Shown here piece after piece: positions 11,352 to 56,087 of a stretch of 64,000 bases of DNA. The notes beneath the pieces were generated by a model, which searched no databases, was not told the DNA's origin, and saw only the letters and a program-made list of their open reading frames with translations. Source of the DNA: Candidatus Paceibacter sp. (GTDB taxonomy: Bacteria > Patescibacteriota > Minisyncoccia > Phycocordibacterales > BOKC01). Position 1 is the first letter of the stretch. Each line of letters starts with the position of its first letter. The DNA lies in the NCBI GenBank assembly GCA_020724885.1, contig DYGD01000002.1:3038-67037 (forward strand). The letters are read 5' to 3'. The translations under genes and the position numbers were made by a program.

Positions 11352-11462
11352 GGGTCTTGAGCGCTTTGTGTTGGCGACTAGCTACTCTCCCCTTGCGAGT
11401 ACCATCGCCACTACTGTGCTTAACTTCCGAGTTCGGAATGGAATCGGGTGTACCCACAGCGT
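11352..11462 (-). rRNA. rrf: 5S rRNA
   Basis: Minus-strand sequence CCGATTCCATTCCGAACTCGGAAGTTAAGCACAGTAGTGGCGATGGTACTCGCAAGGGGAGAGTAG matches the 5S consensus. Confidence 0.85.
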
Positions 11463-11852
11463 TTAATCACCAACACAAAAAACTCAAGATTCCAAGAACA
11501 AAAACAGGCAAAACTTTGATTGCATAAAAGAGAGCAAAACCTTGCGATTTTCAAATTTCCCGATGAGATTGATTTATTAGTACGCCTCGGCTCAACACAT
11601 TACTGTGCTTACACCTGGCGCCTATCAACGTGATCATCTCTCACGAATCTTAATGATTCCTAATCTTGGGGTGGGCTTCCCTCTTAGATGCTTTCAGAGG
11701 TTATCCCTTCCGAACTTAGCTACCCAGCGGTGCTCCTGGCGGAACAGCTGGTAGACCAGAGGTTCGTTCCTCGAGGTCCTCTCGTACTATCGAGAACTCC
11801 CCTCAAGAATCAACGCCTGCAGTAGATAGGAGACCAACCTGTCTCACGCAAA

Positions 11853-12160
11853 AGTAGCTCACTAGGCGCTAGGCTTTGGACCTTAGGATCTAGGAACACC
11901 GCCGTTACCGGCGGGATCGGACGATACACTCGCGGTCAATCCGCGGTTGGTTTGTCGTCTCTACAAGGATTTTACTCCTCTCGGTGTTGTCCTTCTAAGG
12001 ATTCCACCGATAACCCCAACTTGTCACTGAATTAGATTCAGTGCCGCCGTGATTTGATTGGTTTCTATCTCTATTCGTAGACGAAAAGTTCGATTACGTC
12101 GTTATGAGCGGATTCAGACGGTACTTATACCGATACTTGACAAAATCTATTTTTATCAGT
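11853..12160 (-). mobile_element. ORF-less intron-like insertion (~305 nt) in 23S near E. coli site ~2585-2593
   Basis: Exon reads GCTGGGTTCAGACCGT [insert] CGTGAGACAGGTTGG versus contiguous E. coli GCTGGGTTTAGAACGTCGTGAGACAGTTCGG. Confidence 0.6.
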
Positions 12161-12289
12161 ATAACTACGGTCTGAACCCAGCTCGCGTACCTTTTTAATT
12201 GGCGAACAGCCAAACCCTTGGAAGCTTCTCCACCTCCAGGATAAGGTGAGCCGACCACTTTCAATCCCCATGTTGCCATGGGAGCAGAC

Positions 12290-13140
12290 TATACCTTTGC
12301 TTATATCCTAACTATAAGCACCAGCGTGTTATGGCAATGTTTTATCAAATTTAATTGAGGCATTTGCCATCTGTTCACTTAAGAACAAGTCGTTACGGGG
12401 CAATACAACCAATCTTGTATTCCATCGGATGGACGATGTATGGTTTTATAAGATTAATCATTTTGAGAGTTTCGGATTTATTTGCATACATCCGAAATCC
12501 TTTGTCACGATCCTTATGGTGAACCATTTGAATACCAAATTTTTTATAAATAGCATTTTCAAGAATTTTTATTTCCTCTAGCACAAAAGAATAAGTGCTG
12601 ATATCAATAATCCCTTTGTTAAAGGATCCGTCGTCCATAATCCATACTGCCATAGATTGAGGATTGAGATCGACTCCGATATCTTTTGGAATTATTTTCC
12701 TACCAACCCTATATCCATCCCCAACATAAAACCTATTGTAGATTTTTGTTAATAATGGATGTCTCACTGTCCTAAACCACCAAGATTTTCGATATTTACT
12801 TCCATTTTCATCATATCGATAACTTATCTTTGGTTCAGTTAGTACCAGGTCTTTCAATACAGAATACTTATACTCTGTATATTCTTTTTGAGCTAATCCC
12901 TGTTCTATTTTGAAGTTAGCATTTACTGCTCCCTTCCCCATTCTCATTGTTCCATCCCCAAGCAAACAACCCACTAAAAGTGAAAGTTGCTCGTCAGTCA
13001 GAAACATTTTTTCTTTAACGGGAATTAAATCCTTGTGCCAATATTTTGTTGCATAGCTTCCCACGGTGTTGACCATACTATAACGCGAATTATAACATGG
13101 CTTTCTCCGTTATGAGCTGATTTAATGTGCATGAAAAATC
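12290..13140 (-). mobile_element. Intron in 23S (near E. coli ~2500, after GGCACCTCGAT) carrying a LAGLIDADG ORF
   Basis: Exon AACAGGCTGGTTCCGCCTAAGAGTCCATATCGACGGCGGAGTTCGGCACCTCGAT is interrupted and resumes at TCGGCTCACC ~12285. Confidence 0.65.
12393..13076 (-). CDS. LAGLIDADG homing endonuclease (intron-encoded)
   Basis: Motifs LLVGCLLGDGTM and AVWIMDDGSF. Confidence 0.8.
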   Translation of the reverse strand: MVNTVGSYATKYWHKDLIPVKEKMFLTDEQLSLLVGCLLGDGTMRMGKGAVNANFKIEQGLAQKEYTEYKYSVLKDLVLTEPKISYRYDENGSKYRKSWWFRTVRHPLLTKIYNRFYVGDGYRVGRKIIPKDIGVDLNPQSMAVWIMDDGSFNKGIIDISTYSFVLEEIKILENAIYKKFGIQMVHHKDRDKGFRMYANKSETLKMINLIKPYIVHPMEYKIGCIAP

Positions 13141-13289
13141 ATACACACGAGAGAATTGTTCGTATTCTCCCCCTCGACATTCGGTATCTATCGAGGTGCC
13201 GAACTCCGCCGTCGATATGGACTCTTAGGCGGAACCAGCCTGTTCATTGTTTTAGCTGGTGAATAGACTATATCATCACCCCGCCTTGG

Positions 13290-14170
13290 CGGGGGACGGC
13301 GTATTAGTATAAATTCTTGTTCGATAGAAATTTATACTCCATTCACAAAAAGTGAATGAGTCGTTACGGGGTCAAAGAGGTGTTTGATTCTCCTAATTTG
13401 TATTGCATTGAAGGTATAACATATTCTCGAATTAGTTCGTGGAGCTTTTTTGTTTCGTTCACTCCAAAAAATAATGCGTAACCCTTCTCTTTTTTGTCGT
13501 AAATTTTTGGTTTTAGGTCAAAATTTTCGACTATTGCATTTTCTAACAATGAAGACTCTTTTTGGGATACTCTGCCGAGATAAATATAGCTAGATTTATC
13601 TCTCAAGTAGTAGTATCCGTCATCCATATACCAAACCGCCAAAGCCAATGGAGCAGTTAATAATTCGGAAATATTTTTCGGCACTTTCTTTTTGCCATCT
13701 TCGTAGAAAATATTTCTCCATTTGCCGATCTCTGGCGAAGCATTGGACTGCCATCGCCAATATCCGTATTGCTTTCTGGTAATCGGATGAATTCTTTCTA
13801 GATGAGACGGTTTTCCTTGGAAAAGGCGCGGGAATTGACTTCCCTTCCAGATTAAATAATCTTTCTGCTTTTCTCCCTGCTCAAATCTAATTCTCGCGTT
13901 TTGAGAACCAGTTTTTTGCAGAAACGCGTCTCCCAACACAGAACCTATTATTATAGATTCCTGCCTTTTGGTTAATTTCATTGTGTTTACATTTTATCAC
14001 CTCTCGACTTCCCACGGGATTGTGCACTCTAAAACTCTTTTGTAAGAGAGACCTGTGCGTTTCCCCCGTTATAAGCCGTTCTTATTCCTGCTCTTGTGGA
14101 TCAAGAAAACAGGAACGCAAGATTTAATCTCGCTTCTCCGCAGATTACTCTGCGGGAGGACAACAAACGC
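13290..14170 (-). mobile_element. Intron in 23S (near E. coli ~2449, after CCCCGGGGA) carrying a LAGLIDADG ORF
   Basis: Exon ...GGATAAAAGCTACCCCGGGGA at ~14171-14200; exon resumes at AACAGGCTGG ~13250. Confidence 0.65.
13364..13981 (-). CDS. LAGLIDADG homing endonuclease (intron-encoded)
   Basis: Motifs IIIGSVLGDAFL and AVWYMDDGYY. Confidence 0.8.
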   Translation of the reverse strand: MKLTKRQESIIIGSVLGDAFLQKTGSQNARIRFEQGEKQKDYLIWKGSQFPRLFQGKPSHLERIHPITRKQYGYWRWQSNASPEIGKWRNIFYEDGKKKVPKNISELLTAPLALAVWYMDDGYYYLRDKSSYIYLGRVSQKESSLLENAIVENFDLKPKIYDKKEKGYALFFGVNETKKLHELIREYVIPSMQYKLGESNTSLTP

Positions 14171-14363
14171 CTTATTTCAGGCGTCATCCCCGGGGTAGCT
14201 TTTATCCGATAATCTTTGGCCGCATCTAAAGCGCGCCAGCGGTTCACTTAGCCCTGCTTTCGCATCTGCTTGAGACGTACCTCTCACAGTTAAGCCAGCT
14301 TATGCCTATACACTATCGGCACGGTTTCCATTCGCGCCTAGCTGACCTTAATGGACTCCTCCG

Positions 14364-14996
14364 TTACTTTTTAGGCAATGTGTTACCCAATTTATATTTC
14401 ATAGAAGGAAGAATGTGCGGCTTAATAAGTTCCTTGAACTTTTTGGCTGACTGAGATTGTATATACAATCTCCAATACTTCCCTTTTTGCTTATGAAGTG
14501 ATGTTTGAAGATCAAACTTATTCTTTAAGATACTCTGAATGCCTTCTAACTCATCTCTACCGTATCCAAGCGTGTGTATTACATATGTTTGATGTCGAGT
14601 AGATTTGAGCGAACCATCATCCATAAACCAGATCGCCAAGCTTAGAGGAGTAAACAACTTCTCAACCACTGTTGGAATAATTTTCTTACCTTCTTGATAA
14701 AAAATCCTTCCAAAACTTCTGAATGCTTCGTGAGAATATGTTCTCACTCCTACATACACCTTTCCATTTTTAACCTTTGTGTATGGTGTGCTTGGTATCC
14801 ATGATTTTAACTCTCGGTAAAGCCATACCAAATATTCATTTTGAGCACCACAGTGTTCAATCTTCAATCTATATGTCTCACCTTTATCCTGAGTCTCAAG
14901 ATGACCGTCTCCAAGTAAAGTGCCAACGATTATTTCTTGCTGGCGCTTCGTCAAGACTAAGCTCTTCTTGAGTTCGCGGATAGCTTTAGTATTCAT
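14364..14996 (-). CDS. LAGLIDADG homing endonuclease (intron-encoded; stop codon lies ~10 nt inside the downstream 23S exon)
   Basis: Motifs IIVGTLLGDGHL and AIWFMDDGSL. Last codons cct aaa aag taa overlap exon sequence CCUAAAAAGUAACGGAGG. Confidence 0.8.
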   Translation of the reverse strand: MNTKAIRELKKSLVLTKRQQEIIVGTLLGDGHLETQDKGETYRLKIEHCGAQNEYLVWLYRELKSWIPSTPYTKVKNGKVYVGVRTYSHEAFRSFGRIFYQEGKKIIPTVVEKLFTPLSLAIWFMDDGSLKSTRHQTYVIHTLGYGRDELEGIQSILKNKFDLQTSLHKQKGKYWRLYIQSQSAKKFKELIKPHILPSMKYKLGNTLPKK

Positions 14997-15355
14997 CGGG
15001 TTCTTGTTTTCACAAGACTCACTGTCGCCAGTGAGATCGGACTATATCTTCATCCTTAATTATAAAGGATGGTTGGTGTTTAGTCTCTACGGGTGTTTAT
15101 GTGCTGGATAGTGAGGGGGAGCGTTAACTGGTAACGCTCCCCCTAGTGAACCCGCCAACATGGTATTTGCCGTAGCATGGAGGACGGGATCCACTATTCA
15201 ACACACAAACTTCCCTCGGAATTGTCTCTTTACAGAGAGTTTTTCCGATATGACCAACTTTTTCCGCCCCGATTCACATCGGGGGGTCCCCCTAATTTGT
15301 TTTTTTCGGAGTCGGAGTAACTCCATGAGGCGCCTGATTTCAAGACACGAAAAAT
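14376..15355 (-). mobile_element. Intron in 23S (domain V region ~E. coli 2250s) carrying a LAGLIDADG ORF; contains a 13-bp GC hairpin (gggggagcgttaac/gttaacgctcccc)
   Basis: Exon GTGGGGCGCTTTCCTTC at ~15356-15372; exon resumes at CCTAAAAAGTAACGGAGGAG ~14376. Boundaries approximate. Confidence 0.55.
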
Positions 15356-15689
15356 CATGTCCTGAAGGAAAGCGCCCCACTTAAACTGCCCACCAGATAA
15401 TGTCCCTTGCCGTTTTTGCCGACGAGGTTAGAACATATCCTTTCACAGAGTGGTATTTCACTGGCGACTCCATGCCGACCGAAACCGGCACTTCAAAGTC
15501 TCCCACCTATGCTACGCAGTAAAAAAATAAGCTCAATATCAAGTTGCAGTAAAGCTCCCGGGGTCTTTTCGTCTAACTGCAGGTAACCGGCATCTTCACC
15601 GGTATTGTATTTTCACCGAGCAAGTCCCCGAGACAGTTGCCCACTCGTTACGCCATTCGTGCACGTCTCTAATTAAGAGACAAGGAATT

Positions 15690-15900
15690 ACGCTCTTCTA
15701 TCCCTTTAACAGAAGGACCATGTCTTCATCTCTGCTTATTAAGCAGAGCGCACGGCGTATGGCCTCTCATATGAGCCGTGATTGGACTATTCTTGTGTCA
15801 CCACAAGAAAGGTAGCTTTCGCATAATTTATTTGTTTATCTCCATAACGATCCCAGTCCTTCTGATTCCCTTAAAAAGAGAATCAGAACCTTAGGATCGT
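15690..15900 (-). mobile_element. ORF-less intron-like insertion (~215 nt) at the classic 23S site 1917 (after CCUAAGGU)
   Basis: Exon GTCGGTCGTAACTATAACGATCCTAAGGT [insert] AGAAGAGCGTAATTCCTTGTC versus contiguous E. coli sequence. Confidence 0.6.
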
Positions 15901-16077
15901 TATAGTTACGACCGACATTCACCAGGGCTTATAACAATCACCAATACATCTTGCGACATATCAACGTCGTTACTTGACCTTCTGGCATTGGTCAGGCGTC
16001 ACCCCCTATACATCCTCTTGCGAGTTCGCAGGGAGCTGTGTTTTTGATAAACAGTCGGCAGGCATACTTTAGCTGCG

Positions 16078-16221
16078 GCCCCCGACACCAACTTTGGCAT
16101 CGTTGCATTGTGTGTTTTCGTAATTTTTGTCGCAATACTTCAGATTTTAAGTAAGAAATTATTACTTACTTTAATCTTTGGAGTTGCAACAAAAACACAA
16201 TGCCAAAGTTGGCGTCGGGGG
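16078..16221 (-). ncRNA. ~145-nt stem-loop insertion / intervening sequence in 23S (variable helix near E. coli ~1720-1750) closed by a 22-bp stem
   Basis: cccccgacaccaactttggcat ... atgccaaagttggcgtcggggg inverted repeat (one G-U); the closing stem and ~40 nt of loop are similar to the element at 18655..18797. Confidence 0.55.
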
Positions 16222-17501
16222 CAGGCCTTATTGCGAACTTACGGCCGCTTTTTTGCCGAGTTCCTTGGGGACCTCTCACTCGTTCGCCTTGGTCTTCTCG
16301 ACCTGACTACCTGTGTCGGTTTTGCGGTACGGTTTGAATCTGCTTAACCTTAGAAGTTTTTCTTGGAAGCGCGCTTTACAAAATTTGATCACCCGAAGGT
16401 TCACATTTTCGTTCTGCTTGGGTTTGTGCCTCCCGGATTTTCCTGGGAAACGCCCTCACAGCGCGAACATAAATCCAATAATATGCTTTGTATACTGCAC
16501 TCCGTCCCTCCATCGAAACAAATTCAAGTCACGGAATATTAACCGTGTGTCCATCACCTTCGGCTTTCGCCATCGGCTTAGGCCCGACTAACCCTTCCCT
16601 GATTATCATCGGGAAGGAAACCTTAGTCTTTCGGCGTCCCGGTTTCTCACCGGGATTGCGGTTACTTGTGCCAACATTCTTACTTCCACACGCTCCAGCA
16701 TGGGTTACCCCTTTGCCTTCAACGCAGAGTGGAATACTCTCCTACCACATGTCAATGCGAAGCACTGACACATCCTCAGTTTCGGTATCATGCTTGAGCC
16801 CCGATTATCTTTGGCGCAAAATCTCTGAATAAGTGAGCTGTTACGCTTTCTTTAAAGGATGGCTGCTTCTAAGCCAACCTCCTTATTGTCAGAGAAATCT
16901 TACAACCTTACGCGCACTTAGCATGAATTTAGGGACCTTAACTAGAGATCTGGGCTGTTTCCCTTTTGACCAATGGAGCTTAGCCCCCACAGTCTAACTG
17001 CCAGATTCTGGCTGCGAGTATTCGGAGTTTGATAGGTTTGACGAGGTTTCCCCCTATTCAAACCTTCCAGTGCTCTACCCCCCGCAGAAACATCTGACGC
17101 TAACCCTAAAGCTATTTCGGAGAGAACCAGCTATTACCAAGTTCGATTAGCTTTTCACTGCTTACCACAAGTCATCCGATGGAGTCGCACGACCAACCGG
17201 TTCGGGCCTCCGCACGCCTTTCGGCGCACTTCACCCTGCTCATGGCAAGATCACTTGGCTTCGGGTCTCATGTATACGACTATTATTTCGCGCTTTTAAC
17301 ACTCGGTTTCCCTGTGGCTCCACCCAGTCAAGGGCTTAGCCAGCCGCATACATAAACTCGTTGGCTCATTCTTCAATAGGCACGCCGTGATGGCTCCCCG
17401 CTTTTGAGTTGTAGAAAACTCTACTTCCCAAAAGTGGGGAGCCACTCCGACTCCTTGTAGGCATATGGTTTCAGGTCTATTTCACCGCCCTCACCGGGCT
17501 G

Positions 17502-17541
<40 letters not shown>

Positions 17542-18625
17542 TCTAACGATATTTAGCCTTACCGGTTAGTTCCGGCAGATTCACCCGAGCTATTGATGTC
17601 TCGAGTTACTCAAGAATAGCAACCAAGGAGTTTTTCTTGTTTTCGCCTACAGGGCTATCACCTCCTGGGGCTTCTCTTTCCAGAGAATTCGGCTAACAAA
17701 AAAATATTTTTTACTCCTCTGGCTAGGCCGTGTTGCTATCTTACAACCCCCCTCCCCAGTTTTGAATTATGGAAATTTCCATATCTCAAAACTGGGGAGG
17801 GGTTTGGGCTCTTTCCTTTTCGCTCGCCGCTACTAAGAAAATTCCTATTGGTCTCTTTTCCTCCGGGTACTGAAATGTTTTACTTCCCCGGGTTTGCATC
17901 TCGAACTGGTCGAGATTTCCGCCAAAAGCGGAAGGGTTTCCCCATTCGGACATCTCCGGATCAAAGGTTGCTAGGCACCTCCCCGAAGCATATCGCCGCC
18001 AAGCCGCGTCCTTCATCGCTCGTTAGAACCTAGGCATCCACCATACGCCCTTGAATTCCCATCAGGAAATTCAAAAACCGCTGTCAATGCGAAGCATTGA
18101 CCGCGGACACACGCAGACAGGACGCAGAAATACGCAGAAATCTAACTCGAAACCACATGGCTACGAATCAAGATTCTGCGACCTTCTGCGTTCGTTCTGC
18201 GATATTCTGCGGTCAGTGCTTCGCACTGACATTTTTGCTCTCTTTTATACAATCAATCTGCGCAAAGCGCAGATTTGCCTGTCCCGAAACCCTATCTTCC
18301 GAAAGAATTCCGGGATAATCTGTCTACAACAAATAAAGACCCCTCGACTACGCTCGGAGTAAACTCCTTAGTAATCAAAAGTTTTGTTGTGACAGGATTT
18401 TGTCTGCGATATCGGGCTATGCCCAACTCGCGGAACTTTTGTCAAACAACATTCCTTCATCCATTCTGGCTCTATCTTCCGGCCAAATTTCTGTTGTTTA
18501 ACAGAAATTTGGCCGAGAGACAAAAAAACCGCCTTTTAAGCGGATTTGACTATCACATAACGATAAAATCACCGTCTCCGCTTGAGTTTTGATATTAAAA
18601 AATTTATTAACATAACTTTATTCTA

Positions 18626-22080: not shown

Positions 22081-22902
22081 CTAGTATACTATCTCAAACT
22101 CCCTACGGAAAGACCCACCCGGGCCGCCATGCTGTGTCGGCAAGGTGTGTTGGATGTTGGCCTCATCAACCGCACGAACCGCTTTGTTATTCAAAAAGAT
22201 TTTGGCGTCAAAAAGTTCTCCGGCAGCAGTATTTTCTCCTCGGGGCTTAACATAGACCGCAAATGTCCTCGAGCTATTTCTCGGAATAACATAAGAAAAG
22301 CCACCAAAACGGAGAGTGTATTCTCCTCTTACATCTTCAAAAAAGTCACCCGGTTTCGGGTCAATACTCACCAATGTCTTGCCACCAGCTACCAAAGTGA
22401 TCTCTTCAGCGTAGCGCCAAATTTTTTTGTCAAAGGTAACATCAACACGTCTAACCTCAATATCAGAACGCATCGGTTTAACCACAAAAGACAGCAGGGT
22501 GCTTCTGAAACTATTGCCAATATTCATTCTTACCGAATAAGCACTGTAACTTGGCTCCAACACCACCACAGCTTCACGGCTGGAAATTGGCGGTGCAAAA
22601 CCTTGCCCCGAAAAAATGCCCAGAACCTGGCCTTGAGGATAAAACTGCACAAAATTCAGCGACGCCTCTTGAATAAGAGAATTGAGAACTATAGAGATTC
22701 TCTGAATTTCCGGCTTGGCCGATTCAGGAGTTATCCTGCCTGATTGAATATCGTTGCTTAAATTTGCCAACATCAAAGAGACAACCCCCAATTCTCTTTG
22801 AAGTTCGGATAGAGAAATTGTGGCTTCTGCCTTTTTAGAATCAAAAGATACGAAAACTACAAAAATGGCCAAAAACAAAGTTAATTTTCCTAAATTTTCC
22901 AT
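22081..22902 (-). CDS. Secreted hypothetical protein
   Basis: Signal peptide MENLGKLTLFLAIFVVFVSFDSKKAEA. Confidence 0.5.
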   Translation of the reverse strand: MENLGKLTLFLAIFVVFVSFDSKKAEATISLSELQRELGVVSLMLANLSNDIQSGRITPESAKPEIQRISIVLNSLIQEASLNFVQFYPQGQVLGIFSGQGFAPPISSREAVVVLEPSYSAYSVRMNIGNSFRSTLLSFVVKPMRSDIEVRRVDVTFDKKIWRYAEEITLVAGGKTLVSIDPKPGDFFEDVRGEYTLRFGGFSYVIPRNSSRTFAVYVKPRGENTAAGELFDAKIFLNNKAVRAVDEANIQHTLPTQHGGPGGSFRREFEIVY

Positions 22903-22967
22903 AATTTACATTATACACCATCAGAGATAAAAAGTCAATTTTGAAGACGAAATGCGATAAAATTCAA

Positions 22968-23010
22968 CGCACAAAACCCCCGCTTGAGCGGGGGTTTTGT
23001 GCGTTTTTTC
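22968..23010. terminator. Rho-independent terminator (16-bp stem cgcacaaaacccccgc / gcgggggttttgtgcg plus TTTTTT)
   Basis: Perfect hairpin read from sequence, followed by ttttttc on plus; A-run upstream makes it potentially bidirectional. Confidence 0.7.
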
Positions 23011-23040: not shown

Positions 23041-24285
23041 CTATTTTCCGTTTTTCTTTTTGAAAAGCCAGAAAACCACAAGCGCGACAACAATGGCTAG
23101 AATGATCCAAACCCAGAGAGAATTCCTTTTCCCACCGCTTTCGTTATCACCAGTCACGTTTTCAGACAGACCTTCCTGCGACAACACTTCTTCTTCAATT
23201 GGAGCTCCCTCGTTTAAAACTTGGGCTTCAACAAATTCCCCCAAAACAGAACCCGATTCTATCGTTGAGCCAGAATCCGGTATCTGTGCCAGTTTTTTAT
23301 CAAGTTCTGACTGGAGCAGAGCTATAAGTTGACTTAATAAATCAATCAAATCTGAACGAATTTCGTCCAAATAATCTCCGGAGTATGCGCCCAGGACAGA
23401 CCCGCCAGGATTAAAAGCGAAACCACCGGAACTAGAAGAACCGCCACCCGAAGAACCGCTATCGCCGTCGCCATCACCGCCATCATCATCGTCATCGTTA
23501 GAACCGCCACCCTTGCCGTCATCAATTTCTATCCCATCAACCGGCCCGTCTGCCTCACCGTCTTCGCTGCCACCTGGATCAGGAAAGACATACTCCATTC
23601 CGTCTCTGCAATCCTGCCAGACGACTAGGAAATAATCCAGGTCGTCTGATTCTAAAGAACCACTTTCGTTAAAATCAGCCGATTTTTCACCGGCATTATA
23701 GGCATTAAGAAAAGCTAAGATATCCAAAGAATTATAGACCCCATCGCCGTTAAAATCTGCTCGCAGGCAGTCCTTGCAATCAATCCATGAATCTAAGAAT
23801 AGGTGAAAATCGGCTTCATCTACAACCCCATTCCCATCCATATCTGTGGACAAATCCTCCACGTTCCAAGCATTCAGAAAATCCAGAATATCCCTGGAAT
23901 CAACCACCAAATCTCCGTTAAAGTCAGCCACAAAACACTGCGATGGCAGTTCTTCATCCTCTTCTCCACTACCTCCACCCAAAACGGGGTTTGTAATCAC
24001 AGAAGCTACAGGTGGTGGTTCTGATAGATTGGTATCCGAATCAAATCCCTCTTGATCAATTGTTCCGACTGGCAACTCTGGCGATCCGAAAAGATCTTCT
24101 TGTTGCTCGCTGTCTGTCAAGATCTGTGATTCTTCTATCGCTGATATCGCCAACTCAACAGGTGTCAATTCTGCGGTCTTGTCTGGGGCAACTGACGACA
24201 GTTCCGCTCCCGAAAATGCTGGCAATGAGACAACCGAAAGAGCCACAACAAAGAAAATCGCTAGCTTAAATTTTTTATCTTTCAT
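23041..24285 (-). CDS. Cell-surface protein with four dockerin-like Ca-binding repeats, acidic G/S/D-rich linker and C-terminal TM anchor
   Basis: Signal peptide; repeats ADFNGDLVVDSRDILDFLNAW, DMDGNGVVDEADFHLFLDSW, ADFNGDGVYNSLDILAFLNAY, ADFNESGSLESDDLDYFLVVW; C-terminal WVWIILAIVVALVVFWLFKKKNGK. Confidence 0.6.
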   Translation of the reverse strand: MKDKKFKLAIFFVVALSVVSLPAFSGAELSSVAPDKTAELTPVELAISAIEESQILTDSEQQEDLFGSPELPVGTIDQEGFDSDTNLSEPPPVASVITNPVLGGGSGEEDEELPSQCFVADFNGDLVVDSRDILDFLNAWNVEDLSTDMDGNGVVDEADFHLFLDSWIDCKDCLRADFNGDGVYNSLDILAFLNAYNAGEKSADFNESGSLESDDLDYFLVVWQDCRDGMEYVFPDPGGSEDGEADGPVDGIEIDDGKGGGSNDDDDDGGDGDGDSGSSGGGSSSSGGFAFNPGGSVLGAYSGDYLDEIRSDLIDLLSQLIALLQSELDKKLAQIPDSGSTIESGSVLGEFVEAQVLNEGAPIEEEVLSQEGLSENVTGDNESGGKRNSLWVWIILAIVVALVVFWLFKKKNGK

Positions 24286-24470
24286 AATTTTTAGTGTGCT
24301 AATAATAATTTCTACTTTTCCCTTAATGAGCCAGAGACGAACCAGCTCAATTCAAAAAGGGCACTATCAATAAAGACCACTTTTACATTAAAGCAAATGG
24401 CAAAAAAAATCAACTATGGGGGTATTGCCGAGATTATAGAAGACCGCTATTCAGGTAAGGTTTCAAAAAC

Positions 24471-24498
24471 AAAAAACCCCGCTTTCGCGGGGTTTTTT
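24471..24498. terminator. Terminator hairpin aaaaaaccccgc-tttc-gcggggtttttt
   Basis: Perfect stem with flanking A/T runs on both sides. Confidence 0.65.
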
Positions 24499-24594: not shown

Positions 24595-26643
24595 TTACGG
24601 GAAGGTTACATCAGATGTCCTCCAGTCAGATTCTCCGTCCATGAAGGTTGCGTTCGCGACGCTTGTTTCGCCAGCTGCTACCCAGTTTGCTCTTGAGAAT
24701 TGCATTGCATACAATCCCGAAGTAAACGCGGTTCCAGCAGAAGTTCTACCTTGCAGTTGAGCGGTGATATCAAAAGATATCGTAGTTCCTTCGCTCAATC
24801 GGCAAGTGTTTGTTCCTTCAGAGACGCACTGTGAAGGAAGAGTGTAGGCGGTTGAAGTCGCGGCAGAACTTAATGTGGCATCATGAGCGCCGTTTCTGTA
24901 AACCTTGAAGCTCGGAGTTACGTCAGAACCGCTTGAGAAGAACGGTGCTGTGGTTGAGGCCGGGCCTCCGATCAAAACATCGCCTCCTCTGGCAGTTACT
25001 GAAACCCTAAAGGTTGCAGTAATCGTGGAAGTTGACAAGCTATCCCCGCTACTACCTTGAGGTACTCCCGAAGTTGTCACGCTCCTTGAACTCAAAGAGA
25101 TCTCCAGACCAACATTTCTGACAGATTGAGTGAAGCCGGTTACGGTTCCAGACATAGAAGCGTTATCTCCTTTTGAGTTTTCAGCAACAACTGCGTTAGC
25201 CCCAGAAGTTGAAACCGTGCCGTGGAAAGTGGCCGGGGTTGCGTCAGCATTCCTGACATCAATCTTTACAGTAAGGGTCTTGGTTGAATCTTTAGGAATT
25301 ACAAAATCAATGTCAGAGAAAGTGGCAACACTGCTTGTAACCGAAGCGCTGTCTATTTCGGTATTACCGTCATAAAGATAAGCGGTCTGCGCTGTTGCGG
25401 CGCCAGCACCACCCTTTACTACTCCGACCGGAAGGTCAGTGATGGTAATATCGTCTTTTTCGGCTTTAACGTCAAACGAGAACAAAGTCATTTTGTCTAA
25501 CTCATCATCGTTTGAACCGTCAGAAGCAACGACTTCGGCTTTCTTTGCAGAGTTGGCGTTCAAAGACACTTTCAAAGTGGCTGAATCAGACAAGGCCTTT
25601 GACAAGGTGACTGTTCTTGAGACATCAGAGCCGGTTGACGGGCTGTATTGGTTGATACCGGCTCCATCAACACCTCTTACTCCGTCGTTGGCCAATCTAA
25701 CTCTGCCTCTAGCTGAATCAGCATTGATGTTAGTTACATCGCTGGAATCAAAAGTTCCGTGGGTGTCAGCTTTGATAACAAGAGTCCTTGAATTGCCAAC
25801 TGGTACCAGAAGATTGAAGCCGGTGATTGTGACATAGTAGGTGCTTCCTTCTTTAACAACATTTGAAGAATTCAAGTCAAAAGAAGTCAAAACATTGCTT
25901 CCGTCAGTAACATGAAATCTTCTGTAGATTTTGTTGTAGATTTCGGTGTTAGTTCCAAGATCCAACTTTACTCTTTGAACCGCAATGTCAGAATTCTTTG
26001 CTTCAATTTTCATTCCAAGAATAGGAGCCATTGTGTCTCCTTCATACAAGGTTGAGATCAACCCGGCATTTGAAGAAGAAACGGTCAATGTTCCTTCAAC
26101 TCCCGGAGTAGTGATTCCGGTAGAACCACCGGTAGTTTCTTGTTCACATCTGAAACCTGCTGGTTGCAAAGGAACTTCAACAAATCCGGCTGGACAATTT
26201 CCACTTCCGCTTCCGCTTGAACCAGATCCAGAGCTAGAACCCGCTACATCGGCATATCTTGCCCGTGAGATTGGTCCGAAGAATCCAACGGCCGGAGAAA
26301 CTCCATTAGCGGCTTGCCATGCGGCAACAGCAGCTTGAGTTTGGCTTCCGAAATATCCGGTAGCCCCGGCTGGAATACTGAATCCAGCGCTAATAAGGTA
26401 GTTCTGCAAGCAAGTTACATCGGCTCCACTTGAGCCAACAGTCAAGCTTCTAGAGAAGGAGCAAGCGCCTGAAGAACCGGAGCCACCCCCTTGCAGAGCT
26501 GCTAGTTGCGACTGCAGTTGCGCAATCAACGCCTTCAGATCATCAACTGTCTGAGCTTGAGCGTCGTTTGTGGCGACTCCAATGGCGCCAAAGACCATCA
26601 CGAGACCCAACAAACCTGCGACTATTTTAAATTTTAAACTCAT
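24595..26643 (-). CDS. Large secreted Ser/Thr/Gly-rich protein with putative peptidoglycan-binding (PG_binding_1-like) domain
   Basis: Signal peptide, coiled segment LKALIAQLQSQLAALQ, CLQNYLISAGF...GYFGSQTQAAVAAWQAANG motif, long low-complexity beta-rich region. Confidence 0.5.
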   Translation of the reverse strand: MSLKFKIVAGLLGLVMVFGAIGVATNDAQAQTVDDLKALIAQLQSQLAALQGGGSGSSGACSFSRSLTVGSSGADVTCLQNYLISAGFSIPAGATGYFGSQTQAAVAAWQAANGVSPAVGFFGPISRARYADVAGSSSGSGSSGSGSGNCPAGFVEVPLQPAGFRCEQETTGGSTGITTPGVEGTLTVSSSNAGLISTLYEGDTMAPILGMKIEAKNSDIAVQRVKLDLGTNTEIYNKIYRRFHVTDGSNVLTSFDLNSSNVVKEGSTYYVTITGFNLLVPVGNSRTLVIKADTHGTFDSSDVTNINADSARGRVRLANDGVRGVDGAGINQYSPSTGSDVSRTVTLSKALSDSATLKVSLNANSAKKAEVVASDGSNDDELDKMTLFSFDVKAEKDDITITDLPVGVVKGGAGAATAQTAYLYDGNTEIDSASVTSSVATFSDIDFVIPKDSTKTLTVKIDVRNADATPATFHGTVSTSGANAVVAENSKGDNASMSGTVTGFTQSVRNVGLEISLSSRSVTTSGVPQGSSGDSLSTSTITATFRVSVTARGGDVLIGGPASTTAPFFSSGSDVTPSFKVYRNGAHDATLSSAATSTAYTLPSQCVSEGTNTCRLSEGTTISFDITAQLQGRTSAGTAFTSGLYAMQFSRANWVAAGETSVANATFMDGESDWRTSDVTFP

Positions 26644-28484: not shown

Positions 28485-30695
28485 ATGGGCAAAAAAAGGA
28501 AGAAAAACATTAAACGAGATTCGGAAAGATATTCATTTATCCGGACAGAAACATTCCAAAGTATATTAGCGGTCTTAATGTTTGTTGCCGCAATTTTCAT
28601 CTCTTTGGCTTTTTTTGGAAAAGCCGGAGTGGTTGGTGCCACTGTCGCAAAAATACTAAAACCTTTACTCGGGTGGGGTTATTTTATTTTGCCACTGATA
28701 TTCATCATTATCGGAGCGTCTTTCCTACTATCCGTTCAGAAGAGAATCGCCCTACCTCAAATTCTAGGGGGCGTGTTGTTTTTTCTCTCTGGTATGGGGG
28801 CGCTGGAGATAATTTTTGAAGATAAGGGTGGAAAAATCGGTGGATTAGTAGCTGCCCCCACGTTAAAACTTTTTGATGTTTTGGTGGCAACGATTTTATT
28901 GTTTTCGCTTATCATCATATCTCTAATTATTATCTTTGAATCAAAACTGAGATTTCTATACTTTCTGAATCTTTTTGTAAACCTAAAGAAGTTCTTTTCT
29001 AAAGATAAAGGGGAAAGTGACCACGAGATTGATAATGTCAAAATCAATGGAAATGTTGAAACCCAGAATGCAGAGAACGACCAAGACGAAAACGAAAACT
29101 CAAAACAAATAAAAGAAAGTCCCAAGAAAGACGGGGATAAAAAATCTGCTGCCAGCAAAAAAACCGATGACGACATTTCCATCAATCTCAACAAAGTCAG
29201 TATAAGTGGGATGGTTTACAAGGCGCCGACACTCGACCTCTTGTCCCGTGATACCGGCAAGCCGGGTGTCGGCGACATTAAGGCCAACGCAAATATCATT
29301 AAAAGAACGCTCCAGAATTTCGGTATCCATGTGGAGATGGACGAAATAACGATTGGACCAACCGTTACTCGCTACGCCTTAAAGCCGGCTGAAGGCGTTA
29401 AACTTTCCAGGATTGTCGGACTGCAAAACGACTTGGCTCTGGCTCTAGCCGCCCATCCAATTAGAATAGAAGCCCCAATTCCGGGCAAATCGCTGGTTGG
29501 AATTGAAATACCGAACAGCATAAAAACCACAGTTGGTCTTGGCAGTATTCTTTCCGAAAAAGATTTTCAAAACTCTCCGAAACCTCTTTTCATCGCCTTG
29601 GGCAAAGCAATCTCGGGTAAAGCCCACTTTGATGATGTCGCCAGAATGCCACACCTGCTTATCGCCGGTGCAACCGGTAGTGGCAAAAGCGTGATGGTCC
29701 ATTCGCTTATCACTTCCCTGCTTTACAGAAATTCTCCAGAAAATTTGAAACTTATTCTGATTGACCCAAAAAGAGTGGAACTAACTTTATACAACAAAAT
29801 TCCGCACCTTCTAACTCCGGTTTTGACCGATCCCAAAAAAGCTATACTAGCTCTGAAATGGGCGGCTAAAGAGATGGATCGGCGCTACGATATTTTGGAA
29901 GCCGAAAAGGTCAGAGACATCGGTTCTTACCACAAAAATGTCTTGGAGCCGGCTTTGAAAAAACAAAAGGGTGGGGCCGGTGACACTGATTTGCCGGAAG
30001 CAATGCCTTATATTGTTGTCGTCATAGACGAATTGGCCGACATAATGACCAATTACCCGCGTGAAATGGAAGCGGCCGTGGTCCGTTTGGCGCAAATGTC
30101 CAGAGCGGTCGGCATTCACCTTGTTTTATCCACCCAGAGACCTTCAGTCAATGTCATCACCGGACTTATAAAAGCCAACATCCCGACAAGAATAGCGCTC
30201 CAGGTCGCCAGCCAGATTGACTCCCGCACTATTCTTGATATGGCTGGAGCAGAAAAACTCTTGGGGGCCGGCGATATGCTGTTCCTCTCAAGCGAAATGT
30301 CAAAGCCACACAGAATTCAAACGGCATACATTTCGGAAACAGAAGTAAAAGAAGTCGTCAAATTTATATCTGAAAATAATCCAAGCGACGGTATGTCTTT
30401 AGATATCAACCTTGAGACAGCCCAGAGCGCCGTTGAAATTGGCACCGACGGAGGCGACGGCGAGGAGGATGATCTCTACGAAGAAGCCCGAGAGCTGGTC
30501 TTAAAGGCAGGCAAGGCCTCTACTTCTTATCTGCAAAGACGTCTAAGAATCGGCTATGCCAGGGCCGCCCGGTTGATTGATATGTTAGAAGAAAGAGGTG
30601 TGGTCGGCGCCGGTGAGGGCTCAAAACCGCGCGAAGTTTTGTCAGCAAACAATGGCGGTCAGGTGCCAGAAGAAGATGACCTTCAATATAATTAA
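28485..30695 (+). CDS. ftsK: DNA translocase FtsK/SpoIIIE
   Basis: N-terminal TM segments, Walker A AGATGSGKS, Walker B VVVIDELAD, C-terminal gamma wHTH (STSYLQRRLRIGYARAARLIDMLEE). Confidence 0.9.
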   Translation: MGKKRKKNIKRDSERYSFIRTETFQSILAVLMFVAAIFISLAFFGKAGVVGATVAKILKPLLGWGYFILPLIFIIIGASFLLSVQKRIALPQILGGVLFFLSGMGALEIIFEDKGGKIGGLVAAPTLKLFDVLVATILLFSLIIISLIIIFESKLRFLYFLNLFVNLKKFFSKDKGESDHEIDNVKINGNVETQNAENDQDENENSKQIKESPKKDGDKKSAASKKTDDDISINLNKVSISGMVYKAPTLDLLSRDTGKPGVGDIKANANIIKRTLQNFGIHVEMDEITIGPTVTRYALKPAEGVKLSRIVGLQNDLALALAAHPIRIEAPIPGKSLVGIEIPNSIKTTVGLGSILSEKDFQNSPKPLFIALGKAISGKAHFDDVARMPHLLIAGATGSGKSVMVHSLITSLLYRNSPENLKLILIDPKRVELTLYNKIPHLLTPVLTDPKKAILALKWAAKEMDRRYDILEAEKVRDIGSYHKNVLEPALKKQKGGAGDTDLPEAMPYIVVVIDELADIMTNYPREMEAAVVRLAQMSRAVGIHLVLSTQRPSVNVITGLIKANIPTRIALQVASQIDSRTILDMAGAEKLLGAGDMLFLSSEMSKPHRIQTAYISETEVKEVVKFISENNPSDGMSLDINLETAQSAVEIGTDGGDGEEDDLYEEARELVLKAGKASTSYLQRRLRIGYARAARLIDMLEERGVVGAGEGSKPREVLSANNGGQVPEEDDLQYN

Positions 30696-30696
30696 A

Positions 30697-31074
30697 ATGA
30701 ATAGAGGTAAAGATTTCCAAGTAAAAAATGCTCTGACGCTCTTGTTTATTTTAATAATCGCCGGCTATTCCCTCTTTGAGGCCAGAGGTATAATTAGCGG
30801 GCCATCATTAGAAGTCCACGAACCAAAAAATGGCAGCGGATTTAAACAAAGCTTGATGACAGTTTCCGGCACGGCAAAAAAAATAGTTTTTTTAAGCATA
30901 AACGATCATCCGACTTCAACCGATGAAAAAGGCGGGTTTGAGGAGAGGGTTCTTTTGGCGCCGGGATACAATACCCTAAAAGTAAAAGTCGAGGACAGGT
31001 TGGGGCGAGAAAAGATAAAAATATACGAATTGGTGTATAATTTAGAAAATAACACGACACTAATCCACGAATGA
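30697..31074 (+). CDS. Small membrane-anchored hypothetical protein (start re-assigned to ATG just after ftsK stop)
   Basis: TM LTLLFILIIAGYSLF then soluble domain; ORF-track start at 30598 would overlap ftsK. Confidence 0.4.
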   Translation: MNRGKDFQVKNALTLLFILIIAGYSLFEARGIISGPSLEVHEPKNGSGFKQSLMTVSGTAKKIVFLSINDHPTSTDEKGGFEERVLLAPGYNTLKVKVEDRLGREKIKIYELVYNLENNTTLIHE

Positions 31075-34653: not shown

Positions 34654-35478
34654 TCAACAAATGACCATAGACCTTAATTTCTCTGTGTTTCCATGCTTCA
34701 ACACTCCTAAATACGAAGTAATGGTTTCCGGCTTCGGATTTCCTTTTATTCTCTTTATCACTCTCCTCCTAGTCGCCGTCCTCAACACCCGGTGTTTGGG
34801 AAAATTCACCCAGCCCAGGAAATCAACTCCGGAAGCGAAGGTTTTTATATAGACCTTATCAGGATGCAAGTTCAATTTGAGCTTGGTTTCAAGAAATTCT
34901 TTGATTTTTGGAATTAAATGTTCAAGTTCTGCTTTGTTGTCTGAAAGAAACACAAAATCATCGGCGTAGCGGATGTAGTATTTTTGTTTGAGTTGGTGTT
35001 TAACAAATTGGTCAAACTCGTTCATATAGACATTGACCAGAAGTTGGGAGGTTAGGTTCCCCAGAGGCAGGCCTTTATTTGGCATTCCAGAGTTGAAGCT
35101 TTTGATGATTGTTTCCAGAAGTTCAATCACTTCCGGTTCAAGGCGGTGTTTCTTTAGAATTTCAATTAGAATGTCTTGGTCAATAGAAGCAAAGAACTTT
35201 CTGATGTCGCACTTCAAGACCCAAGAGGTTCTGGTGTTGTTTTTGCTGACTTTAAAGAAGAATCTCTGGAATCTGGCGATGGCTTTGTGAGTGCCTTTGC
35301 CTATCCGGCAGGAGTATGAATCGGCGATGAATTTTTTATCAAAAAAGGGATAGAGTTGTCGGTAGATGGCGTGGTGGAGCAGGCGGTCCTTGACGCTGGC
35401 TTTGTGGATGGTGCGGGGCTTGGGGTCGGAGATGTTGAATGAATGGTAACTTCCATGCTCATAAGTTAAATTTTTCAA
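34654..35478 (-). CDS. Reverse transcriptase, DGR-type (diversity-generating retroelement RT)
   Basis: Complete RT motifs 1-7: KPRTIHKASVKDRLLHHAI (1), FIADSYSCRIGKGTHKAI (2), LKCDIRKFFASIDQDIL (3), GLPLGNLTSQLLVNVYM (4, LGxxxSQ signature of DGR RTs instead of QGxxxSP), YIRYADDFVFL (5), LKLNLHPDKVYIKT (6), GVDFLGW (7). No maturase/En domain; 274 aa. Confidence 0.8.
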   Translation of the reverse strand: MKNLTYEHGSYHSFNISDPKPRTIHKASVKDRLLHHAIYRQLYPFFDKKFIADSYSCRIGKGTHKAIARFQRFFFKVSKNNTRTSWVLKCDIRKFFASIDQDILIEILKKHRLEPEVIELLETIIKSFNSGMPNKGLPLGNLTSQLLVNVYMNEFDQFVKHQLKQKYYIRYADDFVFLSDNKAELEHLIPKIKEFLETKLKLNLHPDKVYIKTFASGVDFLGWVNFPKHRVLRTATRRRVIKRIKGNPKPETITSYLGVLKHGNTEKLRSMVIC

Positions 35479-43053: not shown

Positions 43054-45018
43054 TTAGGGCGACTCTACCCGACCCATTTGAAATGAATAAATGGGATCGG
43101 TATTAATCCTGATAGTTGCTGGCGGTTTTCGGTCTGAGACCTCGCTCCCAGTAAAAATATCGCGCCCAACTGAAAAAACTTCACCAACCAATTCCGGCTC
43201 TTTATTAACCTGGCTTAAGCTTGGAGAAAATCTCAATTGAAAAGCCACTTCCAAAGGCGCGTTCACAACGCCTTGGCCGGCCGGCAACCGATTTACACTC
43301 CACTTAATAATACGGGTTTCGGGATCAAATTTCAAATCTGCCGAAGACGGACTGAATCTACCCAACCATTCCACATACACAGGCAAAACAGCGCTGGCTT
43401 CAAAACCCTCAACATCGTTTATATTATTCACCGCCGACCAAATAATAGTATAAGTAGTTGTTCTTTCGGCCACTGGAGGTAGCGGACCGGAATTAACAAA
43501 TGGCCCTATGGAATAAACTGCGCGCGAGCCAACTGACATATTTGTCTCAATTTTTATCGGTCTCGTGGAAGAAATCGTGACTTCTTCCGGCGGACGACCT
43601 TCCAGGAGCCGTGTCCCGACAATTACGGCTTCAAGATCAACGCGAGAATTTCTTAAATTTTCCCAATCTCGAGCGGTAAAATTATTGATCTTGAAAGAAA
43701 AATCAAAAACACCCCCCTGGCCGGCGCGAACCTTTAGGAGCTCAGAAAAAGTGTTCTTGTCCCAAACCACGGAATTATCCTGCGAGCGATAAAATCCTCT
43801 GCGATCCGGCAACACAGACGCCCTGTCCCAACCGTTGCCGTCGAAAGATAGAACGACAGAAACATCATTCAGGTCGTCTGGTAGATTGTTGCGCCAATTA
43901 ACCTGACCGCGAATAGTGTTACCGAGCTTGCTTACATATTCGCCAGATCCGGAGCCATCAATTGTCAAAGATAAATCAGCCGCGGGTTGCCTCACGAAGA
44001 TTGACTCGTTTTGAGAAACAAGCTCTGTACCAATCAACCGCTCATCGTTTTGATTTTGTATTCCAACTGAATACCTGAAATTTTTTTCTTCTCCTTCTCG
44101 ACCGACAATAATGCCGTTTATCAAGATCTCTTTCCTCTGACGCGGTTCTAAATCACCCAAAAACCAGATCCTGTTATCAAAAGTAGGGGCTGGATTGGAA
44201 CTGCTGAAAGAAAAATCATCTGGATATTCGGCGACCAACATCGCATTTTTTAAAGCAAAATTAGAGTTTGAAACAATTGTGACGCTTGTCCCGATATTTT
44301 GTCCAGACCGCGCCTCCGGCAAAGCGGAGATAAAGACCGAAACTGGGGAAGAACGGAGTTCAACTTTATAAATTTTTTCTTTCGTAAAAACACTGCGTCC
44401 TTCACCTGTCCGATATTGAACCGTAATCTTAATTTCCTTGACACTCTGAGCGGAACCGAAAAGAACCGCCTCAAAAACTTTTGAAAATCTGCCTGTTTTC
44501 GGGGCCAAAATCCCAATATCATCTTCTTGCCGTAAAATTGGTCTTTGGAGATCTTCGGGGTCGCGAGTTTCTTCCGGATATTCCAAAATCAAAACCACAT
44601 CCTCCAAAGGTATCCTATTTCTATTCAAAACCGAGACATCCAGAGAGATTCGCTCGCCGGCTTCTACTGAAGTCACCCCTCTGACCTCAATAGAAATCTT
44701 GTCAGGACTAACACGATTAAAACCAAGAAAGACCGAGAGCATTGCAACTGCTGTAGCCAAAAACGCAAAAACTACCGAAGAGATAAGTGTCCTCTTCAAA
44801 ATCGACGGGGAAATCCTTAATTTTTTCTTTTGTTTTTTAGGTTCTGTGGGCGTCCAAGTTTTTTGGGCCTGAGGTTCATTTTTCCGCAAACCATGCTTAA
44901 ATTGCCTCAAAACCGGCGGGCGGCCCTGGGCGTAAAGTTCTCGTTCCAACCGATTTATAGCATCTGGCTTGTCGTCCTGTTCAGAGTTGCCATTTTGGTT
45001 TTTTCTTTCTTCATCCAT
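43054..45018 (-). CDS. Large membrane-anchored hypothetical protein (single N-terminal TM, ~550-aa extracytoplasmic region)
   Basis: TM LISSVVFAFLATAVAMLSVFLGF; no recognisable domains. Confidence 0.45.
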   Translation of the reverse strand: MDEERKNQNGNSEQDDKPDAINRLERELYAQGRPPVLRQFKHGLRKNEPQAQKTWTPTEPKKQKKKLRISPSILKRTLISSVVFAFLATAVAMLSVFLGFNRVSPDKISIEVRGVTSVEAGERISLDVSVLNRNRIPLEDVVLILEYPEETRDPEDLQRPILRQEDDIGILAPKTGRFSKVFEAVLFGSAQSVKEIKITVQYRTGEGRSVFTKEKIYKVELRSSPVSVFISALPEARSGQNIGTSVTIVSNSNFALKNAMLVAEYPDDFSFSSSNPAPTFDNRIWFLGDLEPRQRKEILINGIIVGREGEEKNFRYSVGIQNQNDERLIGTELVSQNESIFVRQPAADLSLTIDGSGSGEYVSKLGNTIRGQVNWRNNLPDDLNDVSVVLSFDGNGWDRASVLPDRRGFYRSQDNSVVWDKNTFSELLKVRAGQGGVFDFSFKINNFTARDWENLRNSRVDLEAVIVGTRLLEGRPPEEVTISSTRPIKIETNMSVGSRAVYSIGPFVNSGPLPPVAERTTTYTIIWSAVNNINDVEGFEASAVLPVYVEWLGRFSPSSADLKFDPETRIIKWSVNRLPAGQGVVNAPLEVAFQLRFSPSLSQVNKEPELVGEVFSVGRDIFTGSEVSDRKPPATIRINTDPIYSFQMGRVESP

Positions 45019-55508: not shown

Positions 55509-56087
55509 TCAGAAGAAGACGATCACGATAGTTGGTTTTTTGAATCTGCAGGTGTTGTTTGTGGAGTCGGTGCATTCCTGCACCTTCTCGCACCGGAGTC
55601 GTGTACAGCCCATGCTGATCCCATCGTCGCAATCGCATGCGTCTGCGACGATGACATTGGCCTTTCCCTGCGCCATGAAGAACTGCTTGGCCTTCATGGC
55701 GACCAGAGAGCCGTCCACGAAGTGGATGTCAATCCACATCGTGATTCTCCCGCCTTCCAAGCCAACGTCGGCCTCGATTGCGAAGATGTCGCTCGCCTCC
55801 GGATCGGGCGAGATAGCGAGGAAGGTGATGCGGTCGGTTTCGACATTGACCGCCTGCTCGGCAGTCGTGAACTCCACCGAGCCGTAGCCGTTGGAGACGC
55901 TGATCTGGATGCCATCCCAGCTGATGCGGAGACCGCCTTCCAGGTAGAAGAGATCCCCGATGGGGATCTCTTCCTGGATTGTGGAGACGGGAGTCGGCTC
56001 GTCAGAGTAGACCACCTGCCCGCTCACGAGGAGCGGACAGAACATCATGGCGACAACCGCCACCAGAATCGAGAGGACTTGCTTCAT
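55509..56087 (-). CDS. Secreted Cys-rich hypothetical protein in GC-rich island
   Basis: Signal peptide MKQVLSILVAVVAMMFCPLLVSGQ; C-terminal CDCDDGISMGCTRLRCEKVQEC; GC far above background. Confidence 0.45.
   Translation of the reverse strand: MKQVLSILVAVVAMMFCPLLVSGQVVYSDEPTPVSTIQEEIPIGDLFYLEGGLRISWDGIQISVSNGYGSVEFTTAEQAVNVETDRITFLAISPDPEASDIFAIEADVGLEGGRITMWIDIHFVDGSLVAMKAKQFFMAQGKANVIVADACDCDDGISMGCTRLRCEKVQECTDSTNNTCRFKKPTIVIVFF

Follow-up and report, generated by a model that had tools for sequence, protein, structure and literature searches.

A CPR bacterium encodes a predicted membrane-tethered protein with tandem GC-type dockerin modules on a recurrent stalk-membrane cassette

We analyzed a 64,000-nucleotide stretch of DNA from Candidatus Paceibacter sp., a bacterium of the Candidate Phyla Radiation (CPR) (contig DYGD01000002.1 of assembly GCA_020724885.1, positions 3,038 to 67,037 of the forward strand; this whole stretch is the window below), and find that an open reading frame (ORF) at 23041-24285 encodes a 414-residue protein with two tandem dockerin modules. 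By profile the modules are dockerins, and they are the only part of the protein's head with a family match. They are carried by a stalk and a transmembrane (TM) segment that together form a separable module, which recurs under other heads at the same locus. Judging from its sequence, we think that the protein is probably best explained as a membrane-tethered, Ca2+-dependent protein-docking head, and we divide this reading about evenly between a wall or surface partner encoded by the cell itself and a partner on another cell. This type of domain has been catalogued before, and its identity is not new: the NCBI pipeline labels the orthologue P0003 a “GC-type dockerin domain-anchored protein”, and dockerin-domain envelope proteins have been noted in CPR before (PMC10633639). 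Of most use among the new elements are the tandem, tethered dockerins without cargo and the unannotated stalk-TM cassette with its swappable heads.

The ORF starts with ATG and its coordinates are exact. A preliminary description, made from the letters alone, had proposed a signal peptide, four Ca2+-loop/helix repeats, a D/G/S-rich linker and a C-terminal TM segment followed by KKKNGK, and sequence, hydropathy and composition all agree with this layout (Table 1). Beyond that description, we place the gene on the minus strand, recognize two cysteine-bracketed modules, and find a conserved VLGA motif and an amphipathic helix between linker and TM segment. In the N terminus (MKDKKFKLAIFFVVALSVVSLPAFSGA) a hydrophobic core comes after a basic n-region, as is usual for Sec signal peptides, and hydropathy peaks only at residues 5-30 and 386-412, at the two ends of the protein. 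The predicted TM segment (LWVWIILAIVVALVVFWLF) directly precedes the basic tail, and the layout, which fits the positive-inside rule, is consistent with a type I topology. The N-terminal spacer is probably disordered. The linker is 31% G, 23% D and 14% S (residues 227-290) and contains DDDDDGGDGDGDSGSSGGGSSSSGG at residues 264-288. Over the ectodomain (residues 27-385) we count 85 acidic versus 10 basic residues, for a net charge of about -75.

The four repeats begin at residues 121, 148, 177 and 204 (spacing 27/29/27). Each comprises a 12-residue loop of the form D-x-[ND]-x-[DNS]-G-x-x-[DNE]-x-x-D and a helix ending in W/Y, and the conserved core of ~22 residues comes close to the ~21 first given. 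Loop positions 1, 3, 5, 9 and 12 hold the canonical Ca2+ ligands Asp, Asn, Ser or Glu in four of four loops (DFNGDLVVDSRD, DMDGNGVVDEAD, DFNGDGVYNSLD and DFNESGSLESDD). The loop pattern is found five times in the protein, in the four repeats and once in the poly-D linker, compared with a maximum of three across 20,000 shuffles of the same protein; this difference and the NCBIfam expectation value (E) of 5.5e-16 place the repeats beyond chance. All four repeats are present as described, but they are not independent units: they make up two 54-residue modules (C117-C170 and C173-C226), mutually 48% identical and with a cysteine at both ends. Pfam PF00404 (Dockerin_1) matches in two stretches with 27.2 bits (gathering score 22.9), as does NCBIfam NF041540 (GC-type dockerin domain-anchored protein) with 58.7 bits (cut-off 29). 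The dockerin-like identity, for which the preliminary description had named a dockerin type I hidden Markov model (HMM) search as the check and the lack of a profile match as grounds for refutation, is thus borne out above the curated cut-offs.

An AlphaFold2 model of residues 108-235, calculated from a 30-sequence alignment, contains four helices (predicted local distance difference test score, pLDDT, is 88.9; predicted template modeling score, pTM, is 0.76). Helices follow the loops, and the second helix of module 1 continues into module 2 as a predicted continuous helix (residues 157-176). Structure prediction, also envisaged at the outset, thereby gave a confident four-helix model, but a Foldseek search with the modelled modules returned nothing significant, its weak top matches being EF-hand/calmodulin structures (E about 1, TM-score 0.23). 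When the module profile is compared with PDB sequences, dockerins rank first (4fl4 at 1.9e-6, 2y3n, 6kg9, 1ohz), and EF-hand proteins align at the loops only. The protein shares with EF-hand pairs and calmodulin the 12-residue Ca2+ loops, the ligand positions and the grouping of the four loops into two lobes that a predicted continuous helix connects; it differs from them in being bracketed by cysteines and, presumably, extracellular.

Comparison with the GC-type dockerins of NF041540 reveals a shared module of ~54 residues (C-x-ADFNGDG...AFLNAW...DxDGNG...FLNxW-x-x-C) with cysteines at its start and end. The same positions are cysteines in planctomycete modules, and C117/C170 and C173/C226 are invariant in nine homologues. 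The architecture is different. Planctomycete GC-type proteins have a single module at the protein end, usually terminating in ...GC, behind a cargo such as a protease or a β-propeller, and many paralogues lie in gene arrays. Here, two tandem modules are internal (residues 117-226 of 414), terminate in DC instead of GC, carry no cargo and are followed by ~190 residues of stalk and TM segment, so that the C-terminal Gly-Cys module behind cargo of GC-type architecture is not found. The host is a CPR bacterium, whereas all 28 GC-type loci in species-representative genomes are planctomycete. The usual dockerin logic would be reversed, with the dockerin on the membrane-anchored component. Loop positions 10-11, which are specificity positions in cellulosomal dockerins, read SR/EA and SL/SD in our protein versus T-[LRQ] almost always in both halves of planctomycete modules, which hints at a different, asymmetric binding face.

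Type I cellulosomal dockerins (PF00404; Clostridium thermocellum Xyn10B, 1OHZ/2CCL; C. cellulolyticum Cel5A, 2VN5) share the duplicated segment of Ca2+ loop and helix. Compared with them, the connection between the repeats is shorter (alignments require a 6-residue gap), the modules are carried by a membrane protein and not by a secreted enzyme, and the cysteine bracket replaces their non-covalent terminal clasp. By analogy, a disulfide at the bracket may do covalently what the non-covalent “intramolecular clasp” does in cellulosomal dockerins (PMC3821032). The double-dockerin of the C. thermocellum serine protease Clo1313_0689 (PDB ID 8X39) belongs to a cellulosomal enzyme without a membrane anchor, and its module arrangement differs from our model (root mean square deviation is 8.9 Å).

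Identical copies of the protein (P0001) are found on 5 public contigs. Six full-length orthologues share 49-61% identity, one of them encoded in the complete 691,769-bp genome CP129473.1 (“Candidatus Paceibacterota bacterium”) under the NCBI name given above, and two shorter CPR proteins of ~241 residues comprise a signal peptide and a spacer and end with the same tandem pair. One short, anchor-less tandem-dockerin protein, P0009, belongs to another CPR lineage (contig Ga0210057_1000024, L006 10001-17300), and immediately downstream of its gene come three genes without annotation and a type IV pilus set (T2SSE, T2SSF, N_methyl pilin). The alignment of nine homologues has 48 invariant columns, which include all four cysteines and the loop ligands, and every homologue keeps the four repeats, the conservation on which the preliminary description had made its reading depend. 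The remaining matches (>100 listed) are Phycisphaerales/Planctomycetota proteins with a single C-terminal module, usually ending ...GC, preceded by cargo domains of various kinds. In 113 of the 120 listed relatives the protein terminates with the module, the 7 exceptions being TM-anchored CPR forms, and two near-complete modules occur only in the nine CPR proteins. A scan of species-representative genomes identified the 28 planctomycete loci mentioned above, often as paralogue arrays, and no further CPR examples. CPR modules are at best 61% (median ~51%) identical to planctomycete modules and 48% identical to their sister module; horizontal transfer and strong constraint both fit this likeness and are indistinguishable from sequence. 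A recent DNA duplication of the modules is ruled out by their 48% protein identity and by the tandem form common to the second CPR lineage.

Identity to P0003 by region is 72-78% in the modules, 58% in the stalk, 46-50% in the linkers and 21% in the N-terminal spacer, and the dockerins, as the best conserved region, therefore appear to be the selected core. The same pattern bears on a different account, in which the four loops and the acidity of the protein would serve to buffer Ca2+/Mg2+ or to form an electrostatic brush, as a cation sink or spacer without a specific protein partner. The charge of the ectodomain, the canonical ligands in every loop and the closeness of EF-hand proteins to dockerins in the profile search would all suit such a role. 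However, conservation peaks in the helices and cysteines and not in the loops alone, the acidic spacers drift freely (21-50% identity), and dockerins, rather than EF-hand pairs, provide both the full-span matches of the profile and the best structural matches. We consider a non-specific role quite improbable.

The C-terminal part of the protein has its own distribution. A profile of residues 289-414 matched only six proteins among 1.84 billion representatives, and no Pfam or NCBIfam model covers this stalk-TM cassette. It is shared by P0133 (532 residues), which has a β-rich head without a Pfam match and without a dockerin; by P0134 (833 residues), which combines Dockerin_1 (E 7.7e-10; 28.9 bits for the GC-type model, marginally below its cut-off) with DUF4114 and two Big_3_5 domains; by P0135 (181 residues), which consists of a signal peptide and the stalk only; and by the fragment P0136. 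In all of these the cassette runs in the same order: poly-G/S, VLG, an amphipathic helix, VLGE-x-x-EAQ, an acidic run, [GS]R-x-W-x-W, the TM segment and a basic tail. P0133 and P0134 occupy the genomic position of our gene, directly upstream of rplJ-rplL and a mechanosensitive (MS) channel gene. The clade thus seems to retain, at one fixed locus, a surface protein anchored by this stalk and to swap its head, and the dockerins would therefore be the displayed head and not the anchor that the family name implies. A scan of metagenome contigs with the stalk profile found two loci only, both of them orthologues already in hand. A Y1 transposase gene lies directly upstream of P0133 (L038 134-790), and the window contains an IS200-like Y1 transposase at 54030-54722 (minus strand); the transposase could be linked to head exchange at the P0133 locus.

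The end of the cassette could also be read as a cleaved sorting signal, since [GS]R-x-W-x-W, the TM segment and KKK resemble sortase/exosortase signals, in which case the protein would become attached to the wall. The tripartite layout of motif, TM segment and basic tail is in line with this, the motif is kept in six proteins, and the LPXTG_anchor HMM (TIGR01167) scores 15.1 bits against a cut-off of 15.9 (14.4 bits for P0135). But this sub-cut-off score is explained by the TM segment and the basic tail alone, no LPXTG motif precedes the TM segment here or in the orthologues, no other known signature is present, and a sortase-type enzyme was not found in the window. We regard cleavage of this kind as very unlikely.

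We thus return to a membrane-tethered docking head. In the mechanism we propose, the protein would be exported by the Sec pathway with cleavage of its signal peptide, and the C-terminal helix would retain it in the membrane such that the lysine tail lies inside. Each module would bind two Ca2+ ions via its EF-hand-like loops, a Cys-Cys disulfide would clasp its N- and C-terminal ends, and the helices would form a protein-binding face able to capture a β-sandwich (cohesin-like) partner. Two tandem Ca2+-stabilized modules would be displayed outside the cell on a long, flexible and strongly acidic tether. The protein would then provide a point of docking or adhesion on the membrane, for a partner carried either by wall proteins of the same cell or by a different cell. 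Several points weigh against this mechanism. Ca2+ binding, disulfide formation, removal of the signal peptide and exposure at the surface are all deduced. We know of no cohesin partner for any GC-type dockerin, and the term “GC-type dockerin” is absent from the literature searched. The cohesin-like partner that the preliminary description had suggested looking for did not appear: Pfam Cohesin has no match among the ~45 ORFs of the window (E<=1 for the unannotated ones), which covers 64 kb out of roughly 0.7 Mb of genome (size taken from the orthologue's genome).

One specific form of docking would be adhesion to a host or prey, in which an epibiotic cell latches via its tethered dockerins onto a receptor of another cell. 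CPR hallmarks of the window are its rRNA operon, rich in introns, and its homologues in a Paceibacterota genome of 0.69 Mb, the positional homologues have adhesin-like heads (Big_3_5, DUF4114), and head swapping at a fixed locus is common for interface proteins. SEML1_0315, a dockerin-domain envelope protein of Saccharibacteria, is reported to be essential in a cultivated Saccharibacterium and would act at the host interface; its authors speculated on an adhesion role (Wang et al. 2023, PMC10633639). We liken it to our protein by description, both being CPR envelope proteins that carry a dockerin domain in the absence of a cellulosome. Attachment has also been proposed for dockerin-type giant proteins of Omnitrophota (bioRxiv 10.1101/2023.11.21.568195). 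Against host or prey adhesion, the closest planctomycete dockerin proteins come from other samples, and the strong conservation of the modules between orthologues also fits a conserved self partner. We rate this form of docking as unlikely. A still narrower proposal is molecular mimicry: if Phycisphaerae attach dozens of their own exoproteins via GC-type dockerins to a surface receptor, a CPR epibiont displaying a planctomycete-type module might plug into that receptor and so hold its host. The modules are up to 61% like Phycisphaerales modules, and the family is otherwise almost confined to Planctomycetota; co-occurrence with Phycisphaerales in the same samples, by contrast, is not seen for the closest planctomycete proteins and lends mimicry no support. 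The literature searched contains no account of the source samples. It is the least probable of the explanations considered here.

Alternatively, the dockerins may organize the cell's own envelope by binding the β-sandwiches of the peptidoglycan-binding 682-residue protein and the 273-residue protein encoded on either side, which, like an anchoring scaffoldin in reverse, would fasten a wall-associated layer onto the membrane. The gene order 682-residue protein, dockerin, 273-residue protein, rplJ is kept in two lineages. Both neighbours have a common β-sandwich domain (blastp relates one repeat of the 682-residue protein to the 273-residue protein with 23% identity over 130 residues), and all three proteins have similar LxxLIAxLQ-type helices or VLG motifs. 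On the other hand, the 273-residue family also adjoins the dockerin-less P0133 (29% identity, E 7e-28) and is missing beside the dockerin-bearing P0134, and it therefore tracks the stalk and not the dockerins. The β-sandwich of the neighbour is generic, without specific likeness to cohesin, Pfam Cohesin is absent at E<=1, and the three genes have separate terminators and promoters. We consider an envelope organizer of this type as doubtful as host or prey adhesion. Our gene is probably monocistronic, given its own 3' hairpin, the promoter match of the next gene, and the hairpins and T-run of the upstream gene (Table 1). The window encodes no further dockerin or stalk, and neither a scaffoldin nor a glycoside hydrolase lies near the gene. 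The three adjacent surface proteins (22081-22902, 23281-23415 and 24595-26643, all on the minus strand) have in common a GQ/GS-VLG-A/I motif and/or an LxxLIAxLQxxL-type amphipathic helix, and they might co-assemble through these helices.

Table 1. The tandem-dockerin gene, the regions of its product and the flanking features, in window positions.
Feature	Position	Strand	Basis
Whole gene, 414-residue type I membrane protein (predicted)	23041..24285	minus	ORF list, composition
Signal peptide, residues 1-26 (MKDKKFK, hydrophobic core, AFSG), predicted	24208..24285	minus	Sequence reading, hydropathy peak
Acidic E/S/P-rich N-terminal spacer, residues 27-116	23938..24207	minus	21% identity to orthologue P0003; no family match
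GC-type dockerin module 1, residues 117-170 (C117...C170); Ca2+ loops 121-132 and 148-159	23776..23937	minus	Translation, Pfam and NCBIfam matches, invariant columns, AlphaFold pLDDT above 90
GC-type dockerin module 2, residues 173-226 (C173...C226); Ca2+ loops 177-188 and 204-215	23608..23769	minus	
G/D/S-rich low-complexity linker, residues 227-290, includes DDDDDGGDGDGDSGSSGGGSSSSGG	23416..23607	minus	Composition; in all full-length orthologues
Stalk, residues 291-335: GGSVLGA motif and amphipathic helix (SDLIDLLSQLIALLQSELDKKLA)	23281..23415	minus	Translation, invariant alignment columns, recurs in P0133-P0136
Acidic spacer with second VLGE-VEAQ motif, residues 336-385	23131..23280	minus	
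C-terminal membrane anchor, residues 386-414: KR-NS-LWVW motif, TM helix, KKKNGK tail	23044..23130	minus	Hydropathy
18-bp-stem hairpin directly after the stop codon, likely terminator	22966..23005	minus	
Promoter-like site of the next gene, 11/12 match	22938-22910	minus	
Downstream neighbour, 273 residues: N-terminal hydrophobic segment, two helices, GQVLG motif, C-terminal β-sandwich	22081..22902	minus	
Hairpin then T-run after the upstream gene	about 24465-24498		Sequence reading
Upstream neighbour, 682 residues: PG_binding_1 and β-sandwich repeats	24595..26643	minus	Pfam, synteny

Elsewhere in the window, heavy interruption marks the rRNA operon (11369-18050 and 23-1903, both on the minus strand). 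Its 23S gene is split into four pieces (15608-18050, 15370-15550, 12178-12253 and 11569-11813) and holds a group I intron (15018-15367) as well as three ORFs (12393-13076, 13364-13981 and 14364-14996), which on an identical contig correspond to LAGLIDADG_2 homing endonucleases. Its 16S gene (1065-1903) borders on another group I intron (23-1174), which contains an ORF at 55-777 and reaches toward the window edge. We found no tRNA genes in the 64 kb. A 274-residue reverse transcriptase is encoded at 34654-35478 (minus strand) between rpsF and tatD (RVT_1, E 2e-27); the closest NCBIfam model is a group II intron reverse transcriptase/maturase, with 138 versus 300 bits far under its cut-off, and a bAvd-like gene lies near the reverse transcriptase in a related genome. 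A diversity-generating retroelement acting on the dockerin protein was rejected, as no template/variable repeat of at least 40 bases occurs within 30-40 kb of the reverse transcriptase; the two are unrelated.

An isoleucyl-type class I tRNA synthetase of 1172 residues (45639-49157, minus strand) has a complete histidine-phosphatase domain (His_Phos_1, E 1.5e-36, residues 523-689) inserted in its catalytic domain. A small ORF at 30598-31074 (plus strand) with a Glucodextran_B β-sandwich (E 4e-9) overlaps the end of ftsK (28485-30695), and its position is kept in related genomes. Between 55400 and 58000 the G+C content rises to ~0.50 over two secreted-looking proteins without a family match (55509-56087 and 56118-57092), and this region may be foreign DNA. 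Two further large proteins, predicted to belong to the envelope, are without a Pfam or NCBIfam match: one of 654 residues with an N-terminal TM segment and β-rich repeats (43054-45018, minus strand), and one of 440 residues with a signal peptide and repeated GIGTxxP-x-x-KL motifs (50432-51754, minus strand).

For most CPR bacteria the hosts and attachment mechanisms are unknown, and a conserved docking head on a membrane tether, expressible as a Ca2+-dependent module of roughly 110 residues, would be a tractable bait for what these cells hold on to. Because the protein has a separate anchor, the module cannot serve here as a C-terminal anchor or sorting tag, and this favors a genuine ligand-binding role for the whole GC-type dockerin family. 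The stalk-TM cassette with its exchangeable heads beside rplJ-rplL represents an unannotated surface-display module of the clade and might help to recognize other surface proteins.
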